A DNA stretch of 64,000 nt from Candidatus Krumholzibacteriia bacterium (GTDB lineage Bacteria; Krumholzibacteriota; Krumholzibacteriia; Krumholzibacteriales; Krumholzibacteriaceae), in assembly GCA_023131975.1 (NCBI GenBank), contig JAGLYV010000078.1, positions 73,240-137,239 on the forward strand, written 5' to 3'. The notes beneath the pieces are model-generated. The model saw only the letters and a list, made by a program, of their open reading frames with translations. It did not search any database and had not been told where the DNA came from. Below, piece by piece: positions 9,349-37,899 of this stretch. Positions within the stretch are counted from its first letter, which is position 1; the number at the start of each line of letters is the position of its first letter. The translations under genes and the position numbers were made by a program.

Positions 9349-10854
9349 TCAATCTCCGCCTTTGACCATGACCAGTCTTACCCCGGTGAATTCCCAGATC
9401 CGGCCTTCTTCAGAAACGGAAGACAGGGTTTTCATGAATACTCCGTCAGGGTCTACTTCCCACTCACGGCTGCCCAGATACCAGACTCTACTGTAACTTG
9501 AGAGCTGTGATTCGATACGTACTCTCGTCTCTTCGTTCCCGATGAAAAGCGGAGAATATTCAACTACATCGATTTTCTTCTTGCAGTAGTACTCGAAAAC
9601 ATCCCTTCCGCAGGAGAGGATCACCAGGTCCCCGGCATCCGCATTTGCTGTGATCATGTCCGCCGCACTTCTGAAATCGTCTCTCGAATAACGATCGACC
9701 ATATGATAATTCCAGTTTGAATAGAGCATGATCAGGACTACCGCAGCAAATGCCGGCGGTGCCCAGACGCGCCTGTTTTGAATACCAAGTGCCAGCGTTG
9801 CTATGTATAGTGGGAAAAAACAAATCAGGTACCGCACATTAAACACCTTGATATTCATCAGGGCCGCCACAGTGACAAGGACGAACGTTGTCAGGGATAT
9901 CGAAAGGAATAATCCAAGGAGTCTCTCTCTGCGGCTCCTGTACAATCCGGCCACAGTCAGTAGAAAAAAAACGATCCCTGCCGGGATTATCCACCAGCCC
10001 TGGCTTTTCAGTAATTCTGTCCCCGACGATATCCTGTGAAGCTGATTAAGGTCCGGGCCGAACGAGAATCCGGTGGAAAAAGCATAAAAGGCGTAAGGGT
10101 AAGACCACCGATTCAGTGTCAATTCCCCTCTGAGTCGCGCCTCATCCGGTAAAGACGAGATCGAGACAACATCGATATTTCGAAGAAAATATATCTCGCG
10201 GTAGACCCACGGAGAGACCATGATCAGTGTAATCAGGGCTGCTAACAGCCCGGGGCGGAGCCATTTCCCTCTCAACCTGCCGGAGAGGGCGATATATACG
10301 AGGAATCCTCCGCAGAGAAAAAGCGCCATAAAATGAGACAGGCACGTCAGCCCCAGAGTAACGCCGAGAATTACACCGTTTTTTCGGGAGGGATCGTCGA
10401 GAAATCTCTTGAACGTTATCAGTGAGAGGATAATAAACAGAACAAGGACAGAATAGAATCTCATCTCCTGAGAATAGAATATATGAAAAGGACTGACTGC
10501 CAACAGAAACGCGCCGGTCAGGGCGGTCCTGGAGTCGGTTATCGACGACATCCATCTGTACATAAGTATCACAGATCCGACTCCGGCGACGGCCCCCGGA
10601 GTCCGGAGCCAGGTCTCAGAGGATCTCGCCATGCTCCAGAAGTGCATCACCAGCGAATATAGCGGACCGTGCATGTCCCAGAGAAGTTTCCTCCAATAGG
10701 ATATTCCCGGGGGTGGTGAAACATAGGAGCCCGCAGTAAGTATCTCGTCTATCCAGAACGATTGATGTCCAAGTCGATAAAAACGAAGCACCGCCGCGAT
10801 AATTACTATTCCCGAGAGGATCAGCATTCGTCTTCTGTGTTCATCAGATCTCAT
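9349..10854 (-). CDS. GT-C membrane glycosyltransferase (GT39/ArnT/PMT-like)
   Basis: LRFYRLGHQSFWIDE, HGPLY and YSQEMRFYS motifs; multiple TM helices and a soluble C-terminal domain. Confidence 0.75.
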   Translation of the reverse strand: MRSDEHRRRMLILSGIVIIAAVLRFYRLGHQSFWIDEILTAGSYVSPPPGISYWRKLLWDMHGPLYSLVMHFWSMARSSETWLRTPGAVAGVGSVILMYRWMSSITDSRTALTGAFLLAVSPFHIFYSQEMRFYSVLVLFIILSLITFKRFLDDPSRKNGVILGVTLGLTCLSHFMALFLCGGFLVYIALSGRLRGKWLRPGLLAALITLIMVSPWVYREIYFLRNIDVVSISSLPDEARLRGELTLNRWSYPYAFYAFSTGFSFGPDLNQLHRISSGTELLKSQGWWIIPAGIVFFLLTVAGLYRSRRERLLGLFLSISLTTFVLVTVAALMNIKVFNVRYLICFFPLYIATLALGIQNRRVWAPPAFAAVVLIMLYSNWNYHMVDRYSRDDFRSAADMITANADAGDLVILSCGRDVFEYYCKKKIDVVEYSPLFIGNEETRVRIESQLSSYSRVWYLGSREWEVDPDGVFMKTLSSVSEEGRIWEFTGVRLVMVKGGD

Positions 10855-10904
10855 AGAGGTTATTCTTAACTCAGTCGGAGAATAATTTCCAGTTGAAAAG
10901 GAAC

Positions 10905-11474
10905 TCAGCTCTTGATCACGAAAGTTATTAGCACAGCCGCAAAGACAACAAGAAGGTAGAACAGGAGTCTCGCGGGTGGAAAAGAAGTTTTTACTGATTT
11001 GCCGAAAGAAGTACTGCTTTTTGGTTGTCTGACCTGCTCTTCGCCAATGCGAGCCATACAGAACTGGCAGAAATCATCATCTTTGCCAAGTGAAAATCCG
11101 CACTTCCCGCAGGATTTCGGCCGGGCAGCTTTCATGTCCGGATTACTTTCCACCCCCACACTCTTCGGATCCTCACGCACAATCCTTCCAACTCCCCCTG
11201 CTTCTTCCACAAGCAGGAGAAGGCCATTCGCCTTCGATTTGGATGTTCCTTCCCACATCGAAACCGGCAGATTCCTTAAAATATATTTTATTTTTGTAAC
11301 GGGAATATTTGTCAGAAGACCAAATTTAATGGCGAAGGAGTCCAGAGTCTCGACCTGGTTCATCACTCCATCTATCACGACATGATAGCTGGCGCGTTTC
11401 CCCCCGGCTGAATTCCCCAGATCTATCCCCGACACTCCTGTGTCTCTTCTTTTTTCAGTCTTCGTTTCAGGCAT
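10905..11474 (-). CDS. Hypothetical membrane protein: L7/L12 C-terminal-like domain + zinc ribbon + C-terminal TM helix
   Basis: LPVSMWEGTSKSKANGLLLLVEEAGG resembles the L12 CTD; CGKC-x10-CQFC; hydrophobic C-terminus; GGGAGG SD before the ATG. Confidence 0.65.
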   Translation of the reverse strand: MPETKTEKRRDTGVSGIDLGNSAGGKRASYHVVIDGVMNQVETLDSFAIKFGLLTNIPVTKIKYILRNLPVSMWEGTSKSKANGLLLLVEEAGGVGRIVREDPKSVGVESNPDMKAARPKSCGKCGFSLGKDDDFCQFCMARIGEEQVRQPKSSTSFGKSVKTSFPPARLLFYLLVVFAAVLITFVIKS

Positions 11475-11499
11475 ACCTGTCCTCCCTTTCCGTTTTTTC

Positions 11500-11514
11500 G
11501 CATTATCCGTGCCA
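11500..11514 (-). promoter_or_regulatory. Sigma-54 (-24/-12) promoter candidate
   Basis: TGGCAC-GGATA-ATGC with GG and GC 10 nt apart, intergenic, 26 nt upstream of the ATG at 11474. Confidence 0.6.
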
Positions 11515-11577
11515 TATTGTGGAAAACACTCACGGACATCGCATAGAAAGGTTCATATGCCAGGTACGGTTACGGAA

Positions 11578-11958
11578 TCAGTCCTGTGCCATCTCGCAGA
11601 TCGTCTCTGTCCGCAACCCCTCATGCCCATCCAGATCGACGGCTGACACCTTGTAGCAGTATATCATGTTACCTATGAGGTCCTTGTCTATATACGTTGT
11701 ACCTGATGCAGTACCAACGAATTCCTCAAGACCATACATCTCATAGAAGTAATAGACCCTGAATTCGCTGACTTCACTTAAATCACCCGGATAAGTCCAT
11801 TCGAGCGTCAATTCGTTCGGGCTTGGGGTGACTGTGAATGCGGTCGGAGAATCCGGAGCAGAGAATTCGAATCCGGCAGGTGACTCACCATGATCGGCAC
11901 TGCAGGACATTATGAGTATCGACGATATTATCAATATCAGGCATGCAATACGCTTCAT
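11578..11958 (-). CDS. Lipoprotein with a fibronectin type III-like domain
   Basis: Start MKRIACL (AAGGAG SD); lipobox-like IMSC; LTLEWT...FRVY...YCYKVSAVD Fn3 pattern. Confidence 0.7.
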   Translation of the reverse strand: MKRIACLILIISSILIMSCSADHGESPAGFEFSAPDSPTAFTVTPSPNELTLEWTYPGDLSEVSEFRVYYFYEMYGLEEFVGTASGTTYIDKDLIGNMIYCYKVSAVDLDGHEGLRTETICEMAQD

Positions 11959-11972
11959 CTCGATCTCCTTCT

Positions 11973-12458
11973 CTAGAACGTGAATGTCCTGCATATCATA
12001 AATCCATCATGTCGAGGCTCCAATGTCAGTAGCGGAATCTCCGCTTCAGGCCCCCATATCATATCCGCTACTCCGACTACCCAGACTCCGATAGCCGCAC
12101 CAACCAGCATTTTCCTGTATTTATCAAGATTTTCGGCATCGTCCCAGGCCTCGACCATCTGAGAATGATAGAGCTGAGCATCCCCTATATAGCTGGCATT
12201 CTCGTACATTATCCTGGCATGGTCATAGACTTCGACCTTTCTGTCATACTGGATATCAGCTACCCCGAGCCATCCCAGCGCTACGATCTCCATCCCGAAC
12301 AGGAGTGTCCCCCTGGTATATCTGCCCGTACGAAACTGCCCAAGCCCCGGGAAAAGGGCAGAATAGACGATATCTTCCGCCTCGGCCGCAATCAGTCCGG
12401 TCGAAGGCAGCATGATCGATACAGCAAGAAATACCAGGACCAGCTTTTTCATCATCAT
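11973..12458 (-). CDS. Exported/membrane hypothetical protein (DUF5683-like)
   Basis: Signal peptide then YSALFPGLGQF...GRYTRG motif typical of this family. Confidence 0.55.
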   Translation of the reverse strand: MMMKKLVLVFLAVSIMLPSTGLIAAEAEDIVYSALFPGLGQFRTGRYTRGTLLFGMEIVALGWLGVADIQYDRKVEVYDHARIMYENASYIGDAQLYHSQMVEAWDDAENLDKYRKMLVGAAIGVWVVGVADMIWGPEAEIPLLTLEPRHDGFMICRTFTF

Positions 12459-24343: not shown

Positions 24344-24358
24344 TGGCACAATCATTGC
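24344..24358 (+). promoter_or_regulatory. Sigma-54 (-24/-12) promoter
   Basis: TTGGCAC-AATCA-TTGC, exact match to TGGCAC-N5-TTGC, intergenic, about 55 nt upstream of the ATG at 24412. Confidence 0.75.
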
Positions 24359-24411
24359 GTATGTCCAATTGAAAACTAATAATGCCAGGCACAAATGAGG
24401 AGGTTACCCGA

Positions 24412-25032
24412 ATGTCCACAAGGAAATTGACTACGCTGGCGGTTATTACAATGATAGTGATCGGCGCCCTTGGTGCCGGTTGTGACAACGACAACGCCTA
24501 TGATGAACGAACCGTCGTTTATGTCAGCAATATCAACGAAGGTTTCCCATTCATCAGCGATGTTCTCAACCAGGGCCAGAAATTACTCGACGAGGACACT
24601 GGCACATATGACACCAGTGACGACTATATCATCGAGGATTGGATGAAAGTCGAGTTCCACAACAGGCCATACAACTCTGTCATAGATCCGAACGCGAGTT
24701 CTCTTGGCGATTTCCTCGTGACTAGCTATGATGTTGTGTTCACAAGGCTCGACGGTAGCGCTACAACGATTGTAGAAAACTTCACGGGCCTGATGAGCCT
24801 GATGGTTCCGGCAGACTCAAAAGTCGAAGCAGTCATACTTATCGTCCCCTATGCCGCGAAACTGCTTCCGACACTGGTAGGCCTCCAGTATAACGCCGGA
24901 GAAGTAATGGCTCATGCCCAGGTGACTTTTCATGGCCATGAGGTTCAGACGGACAGGGATATTCAATTCAGTGCCGGCGTCATAGTAACGTTTGCGGATA
25001 TTATTACTGATGAAGATCCGAACGAACATTGA
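24412..25032 (+). CDS. Orphan lipoprotein of unknown function
   Basis: MSTRKL start after a GGAGG SD; lipobox-like LGAGC; acidic beta-rich mature domain. Confidence 0.75.
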   Translation: MSTRKLTTLAVITMIVIGALGAGCDNDNAYDERTVVYVSNINEGFPFISDVLNQGQKLLDEDTGTYDTSDDYIIEDWMKVEFHNRPYNSVIDPNASSLGDFLVTSYDVVFTRLDGSATTIVENFTGLMSLMVPADSKVEAVILIVPYAAKLLPTLVGLQYNAGEVMAHAQVTFHGHEVQTDRDIQFSAGVIVTFADIITDEDPNEH

Positions 25033-35433: not shown

Positions 35434-37899
35434 TTATTCGGGCTTTGCCTCCGCCGTCTGCTCGAGATCCTCGAATATCAGGACATCCGAGCCCGGAACT
35501 GCAGAGATCCTGAGTTTGGAGTTCCTGGATATCTCGCCACCCAGCATCTTCTCACTGAGTGGATCTTCCAGAAGCCTCTGAATGGATCTCTTGAGCGGCC
35601 TGGCTCCCAGTGTGGGGTCGTATCCCTTCTCGATAATGAATTCCTTTGCAGAAGTTGTTACCTCAAAATCGAGAGTAATGGAACCGAGTCTCGAATAGAG
35701 GTCCGCAAGAAGGATATCGATGATCTGCATAAGATCGGCTTTGTCAAGCTGTCTGAAGACTATCAACTCGTCTATCCTGTTGATGAATTCAGGGTTGAAT
35801 ATCTGGCGGGCTGCCTCCATGATCTTGTTCTTCATGTGGTCGTACCCACTGTCTCTTTCCTCTCCGTCCAGAGCAAATCCAAAGGCCTTCTTGCCCTTGA
35901 TATCTTTCGCACCGGCGTTAGAGGTCATGATCAGCACTGTGTTCTTGAAATCTATCCGCCTCCCGAAAGAATCGGTGATACTTCCCTCCTCAAGGATCTG
36001 CAGCAACAGATTGAATACGTCCGGGTGAGCTTTCTCGATCTCATCCAGCAATACAACGGAATATGGCTTCCTTCTCACCTTCTCAGTGAGCTGGCCACCT
36101 TCCTCGTATCCGACATATCCGGGAGGAGCTCCGACCAATCTGGATATGGCGAACTTTTCCATATACTCAGACATATCTATCTGGATCAGGGCATCTTCAC
36201 TCTCGAACAGGGTGGCGGAAAGGGTCCTTGCCAACTCGGTCTTTCCGACACCGGTAGGCCCCAGGAAGATGAACGAGCCGATCGGTCGCCTGGGATCCCG
36301 CAATCCGGCTCTGTTTCGACGAACAGCTTTCGCTATCGCCGTAAGGGCCGGCTCCTGCCCGATCACTCTCTTCCTGAGCTCGTCTTCGAGGTTGAGCAGC
36401 TTGACCGTCTCCTCCTCCTCGACATCCGATACGGGAATACCCGTCATATCCGAGATCACGCAGGCAATATCCTGGCTGGTAACGACAGATTCCTGCTCCT
36501 GCCTGGTCTCCACCCATTTTCTCTTCCTGTCCTTCAACTCTTCCTTCAACTGTTTTTCCTGGTCACGGAACGAAGCGGCCTTTTCGAATTCCTGGGACTG
36601 AATGGCTGATTCCTTCTCCTTGGATATATCCTCGATCTTCTTCTCCACATCCCGCAGGTCGTCCGGAATCGTAGTTATATTCAGCCTGGCGCGGGCGCCG
36701 GCTTCATCGATGACGTCTATAGCCTTGTCAGGCAGGAACCTTCCCTGGACGTAGCGCTGGGAGAGGTAGACCGCCTGTCTTATGGCTTCCTTATCAAACT
36801 TGGTCCTGTGATGGGCCTCGTACTTATCCCGGAGCCCCATGATTATCTCTACAGTCTCTTCCTCTGTAGGAGGATTTATAAGTATCGACTGGAACCTTCT
36901 TTCCAGGGCTCCATCCTTCTCGATGTGCTTCCTGTATTCGTCCAGTGTGGTCGCGCCGATACACTGGATCTCACCCCTGGCGAGCGCGGGTTTCAGCATG
37001 TTTGAAGCGTCTATCGCGCCTTCCGCACCGCCAGCTCCGACGATCGTGTGGATCTCGTCGATGAAGATGATGATCTGATCGTTATCTCTGATCTCGTTAA
37101 TGATATTCTTAAGACGTTCCTCGAACTGTCCCCTGTATTTTGTTCCTGCCACAACAGATGCAAGGTCGAGCGTCGTAATTCTCTTGTCCTTTAGGAGTTC
37201 GGGTACCTGATTCGATACGATCTGCTGCGCAAGTCCCTCAATGATCGCGGTCTTTCCGACACCGGGCTCACCGATGAGAACCGGGTTATTCTTCTTTCGC
37301 CTGCAGAGGATCTGAATAATCCTGTGCATCTCGCGCTCCCTGCCGATGATCGGATCAAGCTTGTTGTCCCTGGCAAGCTGGGTAAGGTCTCTGCCGAACT
37401 GGTCGAGAGTCGGAGATTCGCTCTTCGCGCTGGCCTGCTTGCCTGACGCGGAACTGCCCCCACCCTGGTGGAGGATCTTCATGATCTCTTCGCGGACTCT
37501 CTTCCGATCGACACCGAGCTCAAGAAGGACCCTGGCAGCCACCCCTTCACCCTCTCTTATCAGCCCCAGCAGCAAATGCTCGGTCCCGACATAGTTATGC
37601 CCGAGAAGCCTCGCTTCCTCGACCGATAGCTCAAGGACCCTCTTTGCCCTGGGGGTCAGTGGTATCTCGCCAAGGGTAAGCGTCCCGCCGGTAGGTTTGA
37701 CAAGATTCTCTATCGCCTGCTGTATCTGATCCATATCGAGATCCAGCTTCTGGAGCACCCTCGCCGCGATCCCTTCACCTTCCCTGGCGATCCCAAGCAG
37801 GAGGTGTTCCGTCCCGATGTAATCGTGCTGTAACCTGTTTGCCTCATCTCTCGCGAGGTAAATGACTTTTCTTACTCGTTCGGTAAACTTGTCATTCAT
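35434..37899 (-). CDS. clpC: ATP-dependent Clp protease ATPase subunit ClpC
   Basis: Two N-domain repeats (GTEHLLLG), GEPGVGKT and [11 protein letters not shown]-type middle domain, FGF ClpP-docking loop. Confidence 0.95.

Follow-up and report, generated by a model that had tools for sequence, protein, structure and literature searches.

Why should the C-terminal domain (CTD) from the ribosomal stalk protein bL12 have a counterpart on a small, apparently membrane-anchored protein whose gene follows a sigma-54-type promoter of its own? This question is raised by an open reading frame (ORF) of 189 amino acids (aa), with an ATG start, at 10905..11474 on the reverse strand of the 64,000-nucleotide (nt) stretch of DNA analyzed here (the window), which derives from an uncultured sediment bacterium (Candidatus Krumholzibacteriia bacterium, assembly GCA_023131975.1). 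To our knowledge, the bL12 CTD is known only as the device with which the ribosome catches translational GTPases, and a full-text search for L12-like or PF00542 proteins outside the ribosome showed nothing relevant among the 15 papers listed of 26 that matched a term. A first-pass annotation, made from the sequence alone, had described a membrane-anchored protein with an L7/L12-CTD-like domain and a zinc ribbon, and had suggested that it could tether a GTPase or another partner at the membrane under enhancer control. We find that the encoded protein belongs to a real, well-defined, and previously unannotated protein family, one branch of which is fused to a Ser/Thr kinase, and that its head domain is genuinely, if distantly, homologous to the bL12 CTD without being a member of the corresponding Pfam family. 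Throughout, f1 to f9 denote taxonomic families within the phylum, f1 being the source genome's own family.

Architecture and ancestry of the head domain

From the N terminus, the protein in all probability consists of a disordered stretch of 27 residues, a diverged bL12-CTD homologue, and a C4 zinc ribbon that is flanked by an acidic flexible linker on its N-terminal side and by another linker on its C-terminal side, followed by one C-terminal transmembrane helix, a layout that is combined with sigma-54 control. The alpha/beta domain homologous to the bL12 CTD spans residues 28-101 (11172..11393, reverse strand), as indicated by AlphaFold 2 (AF2), Foldseek, VIA-align, and hhalign. In the AF2 model, which was built on an alignment of 27 sequences and reached a mean predicted local distance difference test (pLDDT) value of 75, the core of this domain (residues 29-101) was predicted with a pLDDT of approximately 90. 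It comprises a three-stranded sheet and three helices, arranged as strand (29-37), helix (44-55), helix (59-67), strand (71-76), helix (79-91), and strand (94-101). Residues 1-21, 107-116, and 147-162 were modeled with pLDDT values below 50, which fits flexible linkers.

The C4 zinc ribbon (residues 120-141; 11052..11117, reverse strand) is present as two conserved CxxC knuckles, C122-x2-C125-x10-C136-x2-C139, for which zinc binding is predicted (AF2 pLDDT approximately 84). C122 and C125 are invariant in the 27-sequence alignment and C136 and C139 at least 90% conserved, while in a larger alignment of 51 sequences C136 is invariant and the other three cysteines are at least 90% conserved. The only Pfam match of the window protein is to the DUF7575 ribbon, below threshold (E 0.015); relatives match further zinc ribbon models (Zn_ribbon_3, Zn_Ribbon_1, and DUF7577), all of them below the cut-off.

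The last 22 residues are hydrophobic, and AF2 placed a helix at residues 167-188 of 189 (10911..10976, reverse strand), with one residue beyond it, at a pLDDT of approximately 95; the stop codon follows at 10905-10907. A hydrophobic C terminus was found in 26 of the 27 aligned sequences, the remaining one being truncated. No N-terminal signal sequence was found in the ORF, and the only transmembrane helix is that at the extreme C terminus. Because the chain of f8 orthologues also includes a cytoplasmic kinase, a cytoplasmic location can be assigned to the L12-like domain and the ribbon as well, and the target is thus very probably a tail-anchored inner-membrane protein whose entire soluble part is cytoplasmic. 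The four conserved cysteines and the absence of a signal sequence also support this orientation. The conserved PPxRLLFY-plus-transmembrane tail raised the possibility of a PEP-CTERM-like sorting signal, which was rejected because there is no signal peptide and an orthologue carries a cytoplasmic kinase.

The L12 likeness noted in the first-pass annotation, which had rested on a peptide that corresponds to residues 50-94, was borne out by structure and profile comparisons. A Foldseek search against the PDB returned the L7/L12 CTD structure 1ctf as the best match (E 2.4e-4; template modeling [TM] score by target 0.79; root mean square deviation 2.3 over 70 columns; 20% identity). Ranks 1 to 9 were all occupied by L7/L12 CTD structures, with ClpS appearing from rank 10. 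VIA-align gave Z scores of 9.4, 9.2, and 8.4 for ClpS and of 9.1 for L12 (8yeq), with the next, unrelated fold classes at Z scores of at most 5, so the fold by itself does not decide between ClpS and L12. At the sequence level, the target domain is 7 to 9% identical to ClpS chains, compared with 13 to 24% to L12 chains.

Profile comparisons pointed to L12 as well. An hhalign comparison of the 51-sequence family with 27 bL12 CTDs of the same phylum gave a probability of 92.4% (E 5.3e-7) over 69 columns, which correspond to the whole CTD, and the distant subfamily alone scored 92.9% against the bL12 CTDs. The alignment of 27 sequences reached only 32% when it was compared with the single bL12 sequence of the source genome, and 92% once alignments were used on both sides. 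Sub-threshold matches to PF00542 (Ribosomal_L12) were found in 13 of 37 distant family members, the best at 24.6 bits compared with a cut-off of 25.9 bits, and some f9 orthologues surfaced as weak PF00542 matches in a genome scan. None of the 37 distant relatives matched ClpS (PF02617) at an E value of 0.01 or lower. The window protein itself was not matched by PF00542 at E values up to 1, nor in a whole-genome scan at E values up to 10, and a sequence search of the PDB with the family profile gave a best E value of only 0.2. Taken together, the sub-threshold PF00542 matches, the lack of ClpS matches, and the profile-profile comparisons decide for L12 over ClpS.

Homologous as its head is, the target is not a stalk subunit, since only 27 disordered residues precede the domain where bL12 has an N-terminal dimerization and L10-binding domain with a hinge, and since an ordinary rplL gene is present elsewhere in the genome (L002:1123-1704:+; contig label G000:C30). 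The two proteins have in common the fold, the order of secondary structure elements, profile homology over the whole domain, a set of shared invariant positions, and a head carried on a flexible tether. The target differs from bL12 in lacking the dimerization domain, in scoring below the Pfam cut-off, in its membrane tether via ribbon and transmembrane helix, and in its sigma-54 regulation. It also has a 4-residue insertion and the family-specific residues E42 and F47 (and S46 in the f1 set) in helix 1, and has lost the equivalents of the bL12 residues K65 and K81. With ClpS it shares the fold class and an equal VIA-align Z score. In contrast to ClpS, it is membrane anchored and carries a ribbon, and neither a sequence or profile signal nor a complementary distribution links the two.

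Two observations on the ribosomal protein itself were made in passing. Counted from the first ATG, the ORF of the source genome's own bL12 is 193 aa long, and approximately 65 Lys/Glu-rich residues extend it N-terminally ahead of the usual N-terminal domain, the start codon being provisional. Open frames for bL12 measure approximately 170 to 230 aa in f1 and f3 and thereby exceed those of most other families (mostly approximately 125 to 190 aa).

Among the 51 family sequences, V32, F47, K50, and C136 are invariant, and conservation reaches at least 90% for E42, P70, A82, G93, G94, C122, C125, G126, and C139. In the hhalign register, V32, K50, P70, A82, and G93, five of the domain's eight conserved positions, align with invariant positions of bL12; the Pro after helix 2 and an E-E-x-G-G turn are among the features shared. 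Four lysines of L12 (K65, K70, K81, and K84) are highly conserved, and K65 and K70 make contacts needed for EF-Tu binding, according to an excerpt of PMC10602876. The equivalent of K70 is K50, which is invariant, and that of K84 is K63, which is at least 90% conserved within the f1 set. Helix 1 contains the 4-residue insertion with the family-specific E42 and F47, and S46, P58, and V59 are invariant within the f1 set. Judged from the alignment, conservation is concentrated on helices 1 and 2, which correspond to L12 helices 4 and 5.

Family distribution, kinase fusion, and sigma-54-type promoter

The family is small. A word-indexed search retrieved 27 proteins including the query (E value of 1e-3 or lower), and an exhaustive HMMER search over 1.84 billion representatives retrieved 76 at E values of 1e-3 or lower, 36 at 1e-10 or lower, and 11 at 1e-30 or lower; a profile search identified 59 family members. 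The target had no NCBIfam match and no above-threshold Pfam model. Few matches carried organism labels, and these were Candidatus Krumholzibacteriota, Candidatus Latescibacterota, one "Bacteroidales bacterium", and one plain "bacterium". In the ESM Atlas, the protein belonged to its own cluster (score 0.92, Krumholzibacteriota). A search of the same resource by structure gave weak look-alikes at the N termini of Yip1, DUF805, and M48 peptidase membrane families, which at TM scores by query of 0.37 to 0.46 are leads only.

In a survey of 208 species genomes of the phylum, 79 contained a match, and the gene was single copy in nearly all of these. Matches were nearly universal in f1 (40 of 42 genomes, as a single copy), f8 (21 of 23), and f9 (12 of 13), and were also found in f2 (1 of 1), f3 (3 of 8), and f6 (1 of 10, ribbon only), with none in f4 (0 of 7), f5 (0 of 12), or f7 (0 of 91). 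In 20 of the 21 matching f8 genomes, the match lay within an open frame of 554 to 670 aa. The f8-type proteins that were checked (the database proteins P0093 and P0071 and the one encoded at L061:5885-7624) all start with a Hanks kinase. In L061, the VAIK, HRD, and DFG motifs are intact, and the kinase part is nearest to the PknB/Stk1 type (NF033483, E 1e-93, kinase part only). One database family member has NFA in place of DFG. A split partner corresponding to the fused kinase was sought in the source genome, where 11 kinase-domain matches were found; as all of these are confined to the kinase domain, no split-partner candidate stands out.

Three other non-ribosomal proteins with full-scoring bL12 CTDs (68 to 75 bits) were encountered in the phylum, in the genomes G082 (f7; L098:4952-5533:-), G001 (f4; L099:5023-6027:-), and G003 (f4; L100:4146-5207:+). 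The extra CTD proteins of f4 and f7 are of two kinds. One is a small lipoprotein-like protein with a signal peptide followed by the CTD, while those of the other kind have an N-terminal transmembrane helix, approximately 200 aa, and a C-terminal CTD; the L100 copy adjoins a gene for a 912-aa Ser/Thr kinase. Like the target, these proteins place an L12 CTD on a membrane- or envelope-directed protein. However, they score above the Pfam cut-off, carry a signal peptide or a transmembrane helix at the N terminus, lack a ribbon, and occur in families from which the target family is absent.

The sigma-54-type promoter that the first-pass annotation had read upstream of the gene was confirmed as the -24/-12 element TGGCACGGATAATGC at 11514..11500 (reverse strand), 25 nt before the ATG. 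Its GG (11513-11512) and GC (11501-11500) dinucleotides are exactly 10 nt apart, and its -12 box reads ATGC, compared with the consensus-like TTGC. From the usual -12 geometry, transcription would start near 11488, giving a leader of approximately 14 nt that holds a Shine-Dalgarno sequence (GGGAGG, 11486-11481, reverse strand) ahead of the ATG at 11474. The motif is unremarkable within the window itself, where 2 matches were found compared with 0.57 expected and 9 of 100 shuffles reached 2, and its significance lies in its conservation across orthologous loci. The locus counts given here describe conservation within the phylum, from which all compared loci were drawn, and are not statistics, as related genomes are not independent.

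Just upstream of the start, TGG-N9-TGC was present in 29 of 30 f1 loci, with protein identities to the query down to 31%. The 30th locus (L018) has CGGCAT-N5-ATGC, which preserves the GG-N10-GC pattern and makes it common to all 30. The background of the loose motif in these loci was 0.08 per 270 nt, and 28 of the 29 matches to the strict motif TGGCA[CT]-N6-TGC in 203,972 scanned bases fell at this spot. The start codon lies 21 to 37 nt from the -12 TGC in 26 of 29 loci, and the other three have an earlier in-frame alternative start. Likewise, TGG[TA]AC-N5-NTGC preceded all 10 of the f8/f9 genes that were located, the kinase-fused one included; in 12 f8/f9 loci of approximately 12 kb, 12 of 14 motif matches lay at or beside the target gene, the gene start being located in 10. 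The genome also encodes RpoN (PF04552, 217 bits), and a scan for Sigma54_activat (PF00158) gave 22 matches, 19 of them at E values of 7e-24 or lower, to bacterial enhancer-binding proteins (bEBPs). The structure search, promoter conservation, and rpoN presence, all of which had been named as checks when the protein was first described, thus came out in favor of that description.

In many relatives, a hairpin with a T run, the terminator of the upstream lipoprotein gene, ends 30 to 40 nt before the -24 box. Since such terminators are found upstream and a convergent DUF72 gene lies downstream in most relatives, the target can be regarded as a single-gene sigma-54 unit, and we are confident, from the conserved sequence features, that it is probably transcribed alone from this promoter. 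A sigma-54 promoter implies that the protein is made only when an enhancer-binding ATPase is active. The sequencing runs found to match window positions 10400-12400 were all DNA, from cold seep, marine sediment, or sediment metagenomes, and none of those listed was RNA.

The search for this element also yielded a view of a candidate sigma-54 regulon. Genome-wide, 54 motif occurrences were counted with the 5-nt spacer, compared with 16 to 39 for other spacers. Among the 54 TGGCA[CT]-N5-NTGCN sites, several precede one gene each for a type IV pilin-like, a PilM-like, and an Hsp20-like protein, as well as genes for response regulators and many lipoproteins, labels that derive from reading N termini only. 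Within the window, a second sigma-54-type motif (TGGCACAATCATTGC, 24344-24358, forward strand) lies 24 nt before an ORF (24382-25032) encoding 216 aa with a lipoprotein-like N terminus and no Pfam match.

A putative docking module and competing explanations

As an explanation of the whole, we favor, tentatively and with somewhat less than even confidence, a sigma-54-switched, membrane-tethered docking module with a GTPase as its most likely partner. The target would act like a fishing line, an inverted version of the ribosomal stalk in which the membrane takes over the position of L10, so that an anchor at one end, flexible hinges midway, and a small ribbon would carry the L12-type head at the far end. 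The head would capture a soluble cytoplasmic partner via a face formed by the first two helices (E42, F47, and K50). The likeliest class of partner would be P-loop GTPases, translational or ribosome-associated ones first and MglA-type ones second. In the sister family with a PknB-type kinase upstream of the module, the module might present the partner to the kinase as a substrate, and sigma-54 control would ensure that the protein appears only upon a signal.

The GTPase-docking explanation is favored because the ancestor of the head binds the G domains of translational GTPases, because two of the four landmark lysines are conserved in the family (with K50 invariant), and because the fused kinase belongs to a class that phosphorylates such proteins. 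Indeed, EF-Tu, EF-G, and the GTPase CpgA are described as recurring substrates of PknB-class kinases in other bacteria in an excerpt of a review (PMC6213207). The earlier suggestion of GTPase tethering at the membrane under enhancer control is plausible and can now be better framed. The five of eight conserved positions that fall on invariant bL12 positions and the kinase fusion in the sister lineage speak for it. In its most specific form, which we consider rather unlikely, the protein would be an off-ribosome "stalk head". Upon sigma-54 activation, membrane copies of the bL12 CTD would capture EF-Tu, EF-G, LepA/BipA, or CpgA-type GTPases away from ribosomes, and the sister lineage would hand them to the fused PknB-type kinase. 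If so, cells would possess a new means of throttling or relocating translation, and a bL12 CTD outside the ribosome would for the first time have a function assigned to it.

Whatever its partner, a diverged copy of the bL12 CTD has been long retained across the lineage with a membrane tether and a strictly conserved sigma-54 promoter, and in one branch with a fused Ser/Thr kinase. If the head still binds GTPases, the family could serve as a regulated site away from the ribosome at which translation factors dock or are sequestered, and it would explain in concrete terms how EF-Tu and EF-G are found by Hanks kinases. If it binds something else, a ribosomal interaction module would have been reused for membrane signaling. 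In either case, the family has few members, is well defined, and is amenable to in vitro work.

Several observations weigh against these interpretations. With respect to ancestry, ClpS scores equal to L12 in VIA-align, and the Pfam L12 model remains under its 25.9-bit cut-off on every member. With respect to binding, of the 26 aligned positions at which the bL12 of the phylum is invariant, 9 are identical in the window protein. The equivalent of K65 is Val or Ile (Val in the window protein), and that of K81 is Thr, Ser, or Pro (Thr in the window protein). Moreover, a bL12-invariant Arg is deleted in the window protein, a Gly-Leu is replaced by Pro-Val, and a Glu is replaced by Lys. The 4-residue insertion makes residue equivalences in helix 1 less certain in the hhalign register, and the putative identity of the conserved face with that of L12 was drawn from a sequence alignment rather than from a three-dimensional map. 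At the level of the genome, the conserved neighbors in the 30 f1 loci and the f8/f9 loci are envelope genes, with no GTPase, translation, or regulator gene among them, the PF00158 scan found no bEBP gene within the window, and the promoters of the target and of the orphan GTPase gene mglA2 share no upstream motif that could represent an activator site.

This last gene belongs to a different account of the partner, in which the ribbon, the L12-like head, or both would bind an MglA-type polarity GTPase at the membrane, either MglA-GTP or the orphan MglA2, in the manner of the cytosolic part of GltJ in Myxococcus gliding. The genome has an MglB-MglA pair (MglA at L048:1306-1884) as well as the orphan MglA2 of 380 aa, whose gene shows a conserved sigma-54-type motif in all 21 loci compared (TGGCA[CT] in 20 and TGGAAC in one), and all taxonomic families with the target also hold MglA2. 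Genes for a Gld-like ATP-binding cassette (ABC) transporter lie close to the target, and GltJ reads MglA-GTP by a cytosolic zinc ribbon and linker, according to an excerpt of PMC11135422. Like the target, GltJ of Myxococcus xanthus is described there as a membrane protein with a cytosolic zinc ribbon and flexible linkers, which in GltJ read the state of a GTPase. However, the same excerpt gives GltJ a GYF domain and an N-terminal cytosolic part followed by a transmembrane helix and then a periplasmic domain, with no L12-like domain; the target has no GYF domain in a Pfam scan, and homology between the two proteins was not detected by Pfam scan or HMMER search. Furthermore, no MglA gene was adjacent to the target in any of 40 loci examined, no 7- or 8-mer is common to the sequences upstream of the target and MglA2 promoters, and with approximately 19 bEBPs in the genome a common sigma factor says little. 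Since MglA2 also occurs in f4, f5, and f6, families without the target, co-restriction of the two was rejected, and we regard an MglA-type partner as quite improbable. The gene order suggests instead that the target could be the cytoplasmic arm of a conserved envelope module together with the DUF5683-like protein, the lipoprotein, the Gld-like ABC transporter, and the GT-C glycosyltransferase, possibly as a membrane-stress or assembly factor, with the L12-like fold serving as a generic protein-protein module without any link to GTPases. Membrane-stress proteins under sigma-54 control are familiar from the PspF/PspA system. The synteny from f1 to f8 and f9, which is all that ties these genes together, and the abundance of lipopolysaccharide (LPS) and envelope genes in the window speak for such a module. 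However, the target has its own promoter, terminators part it from the upstream genes, and a convergent gene comes next in most relatives; its neighbors are extracytoplasmic or polytopic, whereas its own soluble part is cytoplasmic, and the kinase fusion indicates cytoplasmic signaling. We therefore consider this explanation unlikely.

Feedback regulation by the product of a sigma-54-dependent gene, which would hold at the membrane the activator of that gene, some other transcription factor, or a kinase, according to PspA or anti-sigma logic, would suit a single-gene sigma-54 unit with a very short leader in a genome with many bEBPs and approximately 11 Hanks kinases. A zinc-binding module beside a transmembrane helix also recalls the zinc-binding anti-sigma factors. 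Such a role appears very improbable, as no regulator gene is linked to the target and no sequence or fold match to anti-sigma domains was found by Pfam, PDB profile search, Foldseek, or VIA-align. Finally, the fold shared with ClpS would allow an adaptor that binds N-degron substrates or the N domain of a Clp unfoldase at the membrane. ClpS structures head the VIA-align list, and the genome has a Clp_N-bearing unfoldase (35434-37899) yet no ClpS at an E value of 1 or lower. However, the identities cited above favor L12 chains, and profile and Pfam signals go to PF00542 only. Within the phylum, ClpS occurs only in f4 (7 of 7 genomes), while neither ClpS nor the target occurs in f5, f6, or f7, and the two distributions are therefore not complementary. 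Replacement of ClpS by the target was rejected on this distribution, and a ClpS-like adaptor is in our view extremely doubtful.

Gene neighborhood and related observations

The order of genes around the target is conserved from f1 to f8 and f9 and comprises a divergent Gld-like ABC transporter, the DUF5683-like gene, the FN3-like lipoprotein gene, the target, DUF72 (in most relatives), PMT_2, a gene of approximately 155 aa, and HSP20; Pfam matches bore out the same order in five f8/f9 loci. Immediately upstream in the window, a small FN3-like lipoprotein of 138 aa (11578..11994, reverse strand; weak fn3 match, E 0.0022) is encoded, which is present in 29 of 30 f1 loci and forms a separate transcription unit in relatives. 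It is preceded by a DUF5683-like membrane protein of 161 aa (11973..12458, reverse strand; PF18935, E 1.7e-5, 25.3 bits compared with a cut-off of 26.7 bits), likewise found in 29 of 30 f1 loci. Of the five f8/f9 loci that were scanned with Pfam, three (L052, L054, and L063) gave a DUF5683 match exceeding the cut-off.

The surroundings of the target in the window are rich in LPS and other envelope genes and also encode Lon and a Clp unfoldase. The latter, at 35434-37899 (reverse strand), has two Clp_N repeats, and ClpS (PF02617) was found in 7 of 7 genomes of f4 and in 0 of 201 elsewhere in the phylum. The mglA2 gene lies at G000:C122:83735-84877 (L046:1345-2487:+) and encodes a G domain with a long acidic tail, with no MglB gene adjacent. 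Its sigma-54-type motif was present in 21 of 21 loci (L046 and L127-L146) across f1, f3, f4, f6, f8, and f9, at 139 to 206 nt before the ATG in 19 of them and at 73 to 75 nt in two, and is preceded by the upstream gene's terminator and by a TTAAAAAA tract.

Downstream of the target, a PMT_2 (GT-C, ArnT-like) glycosyltransferase of 501 aa is encoded at 9349..10854 (reverse strand; PF13231, E 4.4e-16). It was found in 26 of 30 f1 loci, three of the four misses being shorter loci whose contig ends were unchecked. Most relatives have a convergent DUF72 gene between the target and PMT_2 (e.g., L005:2136-3032:- and L006:581-1480:+). This gene is missing here, where the two genes lie on the same strand, separated by a gap of 50 nt (10855-10904). 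With PMT_2 starting 50 nt past the target stop codon, read-through from the sigma-54 promoter into the glycosyltransferase gene is possible in this genome.

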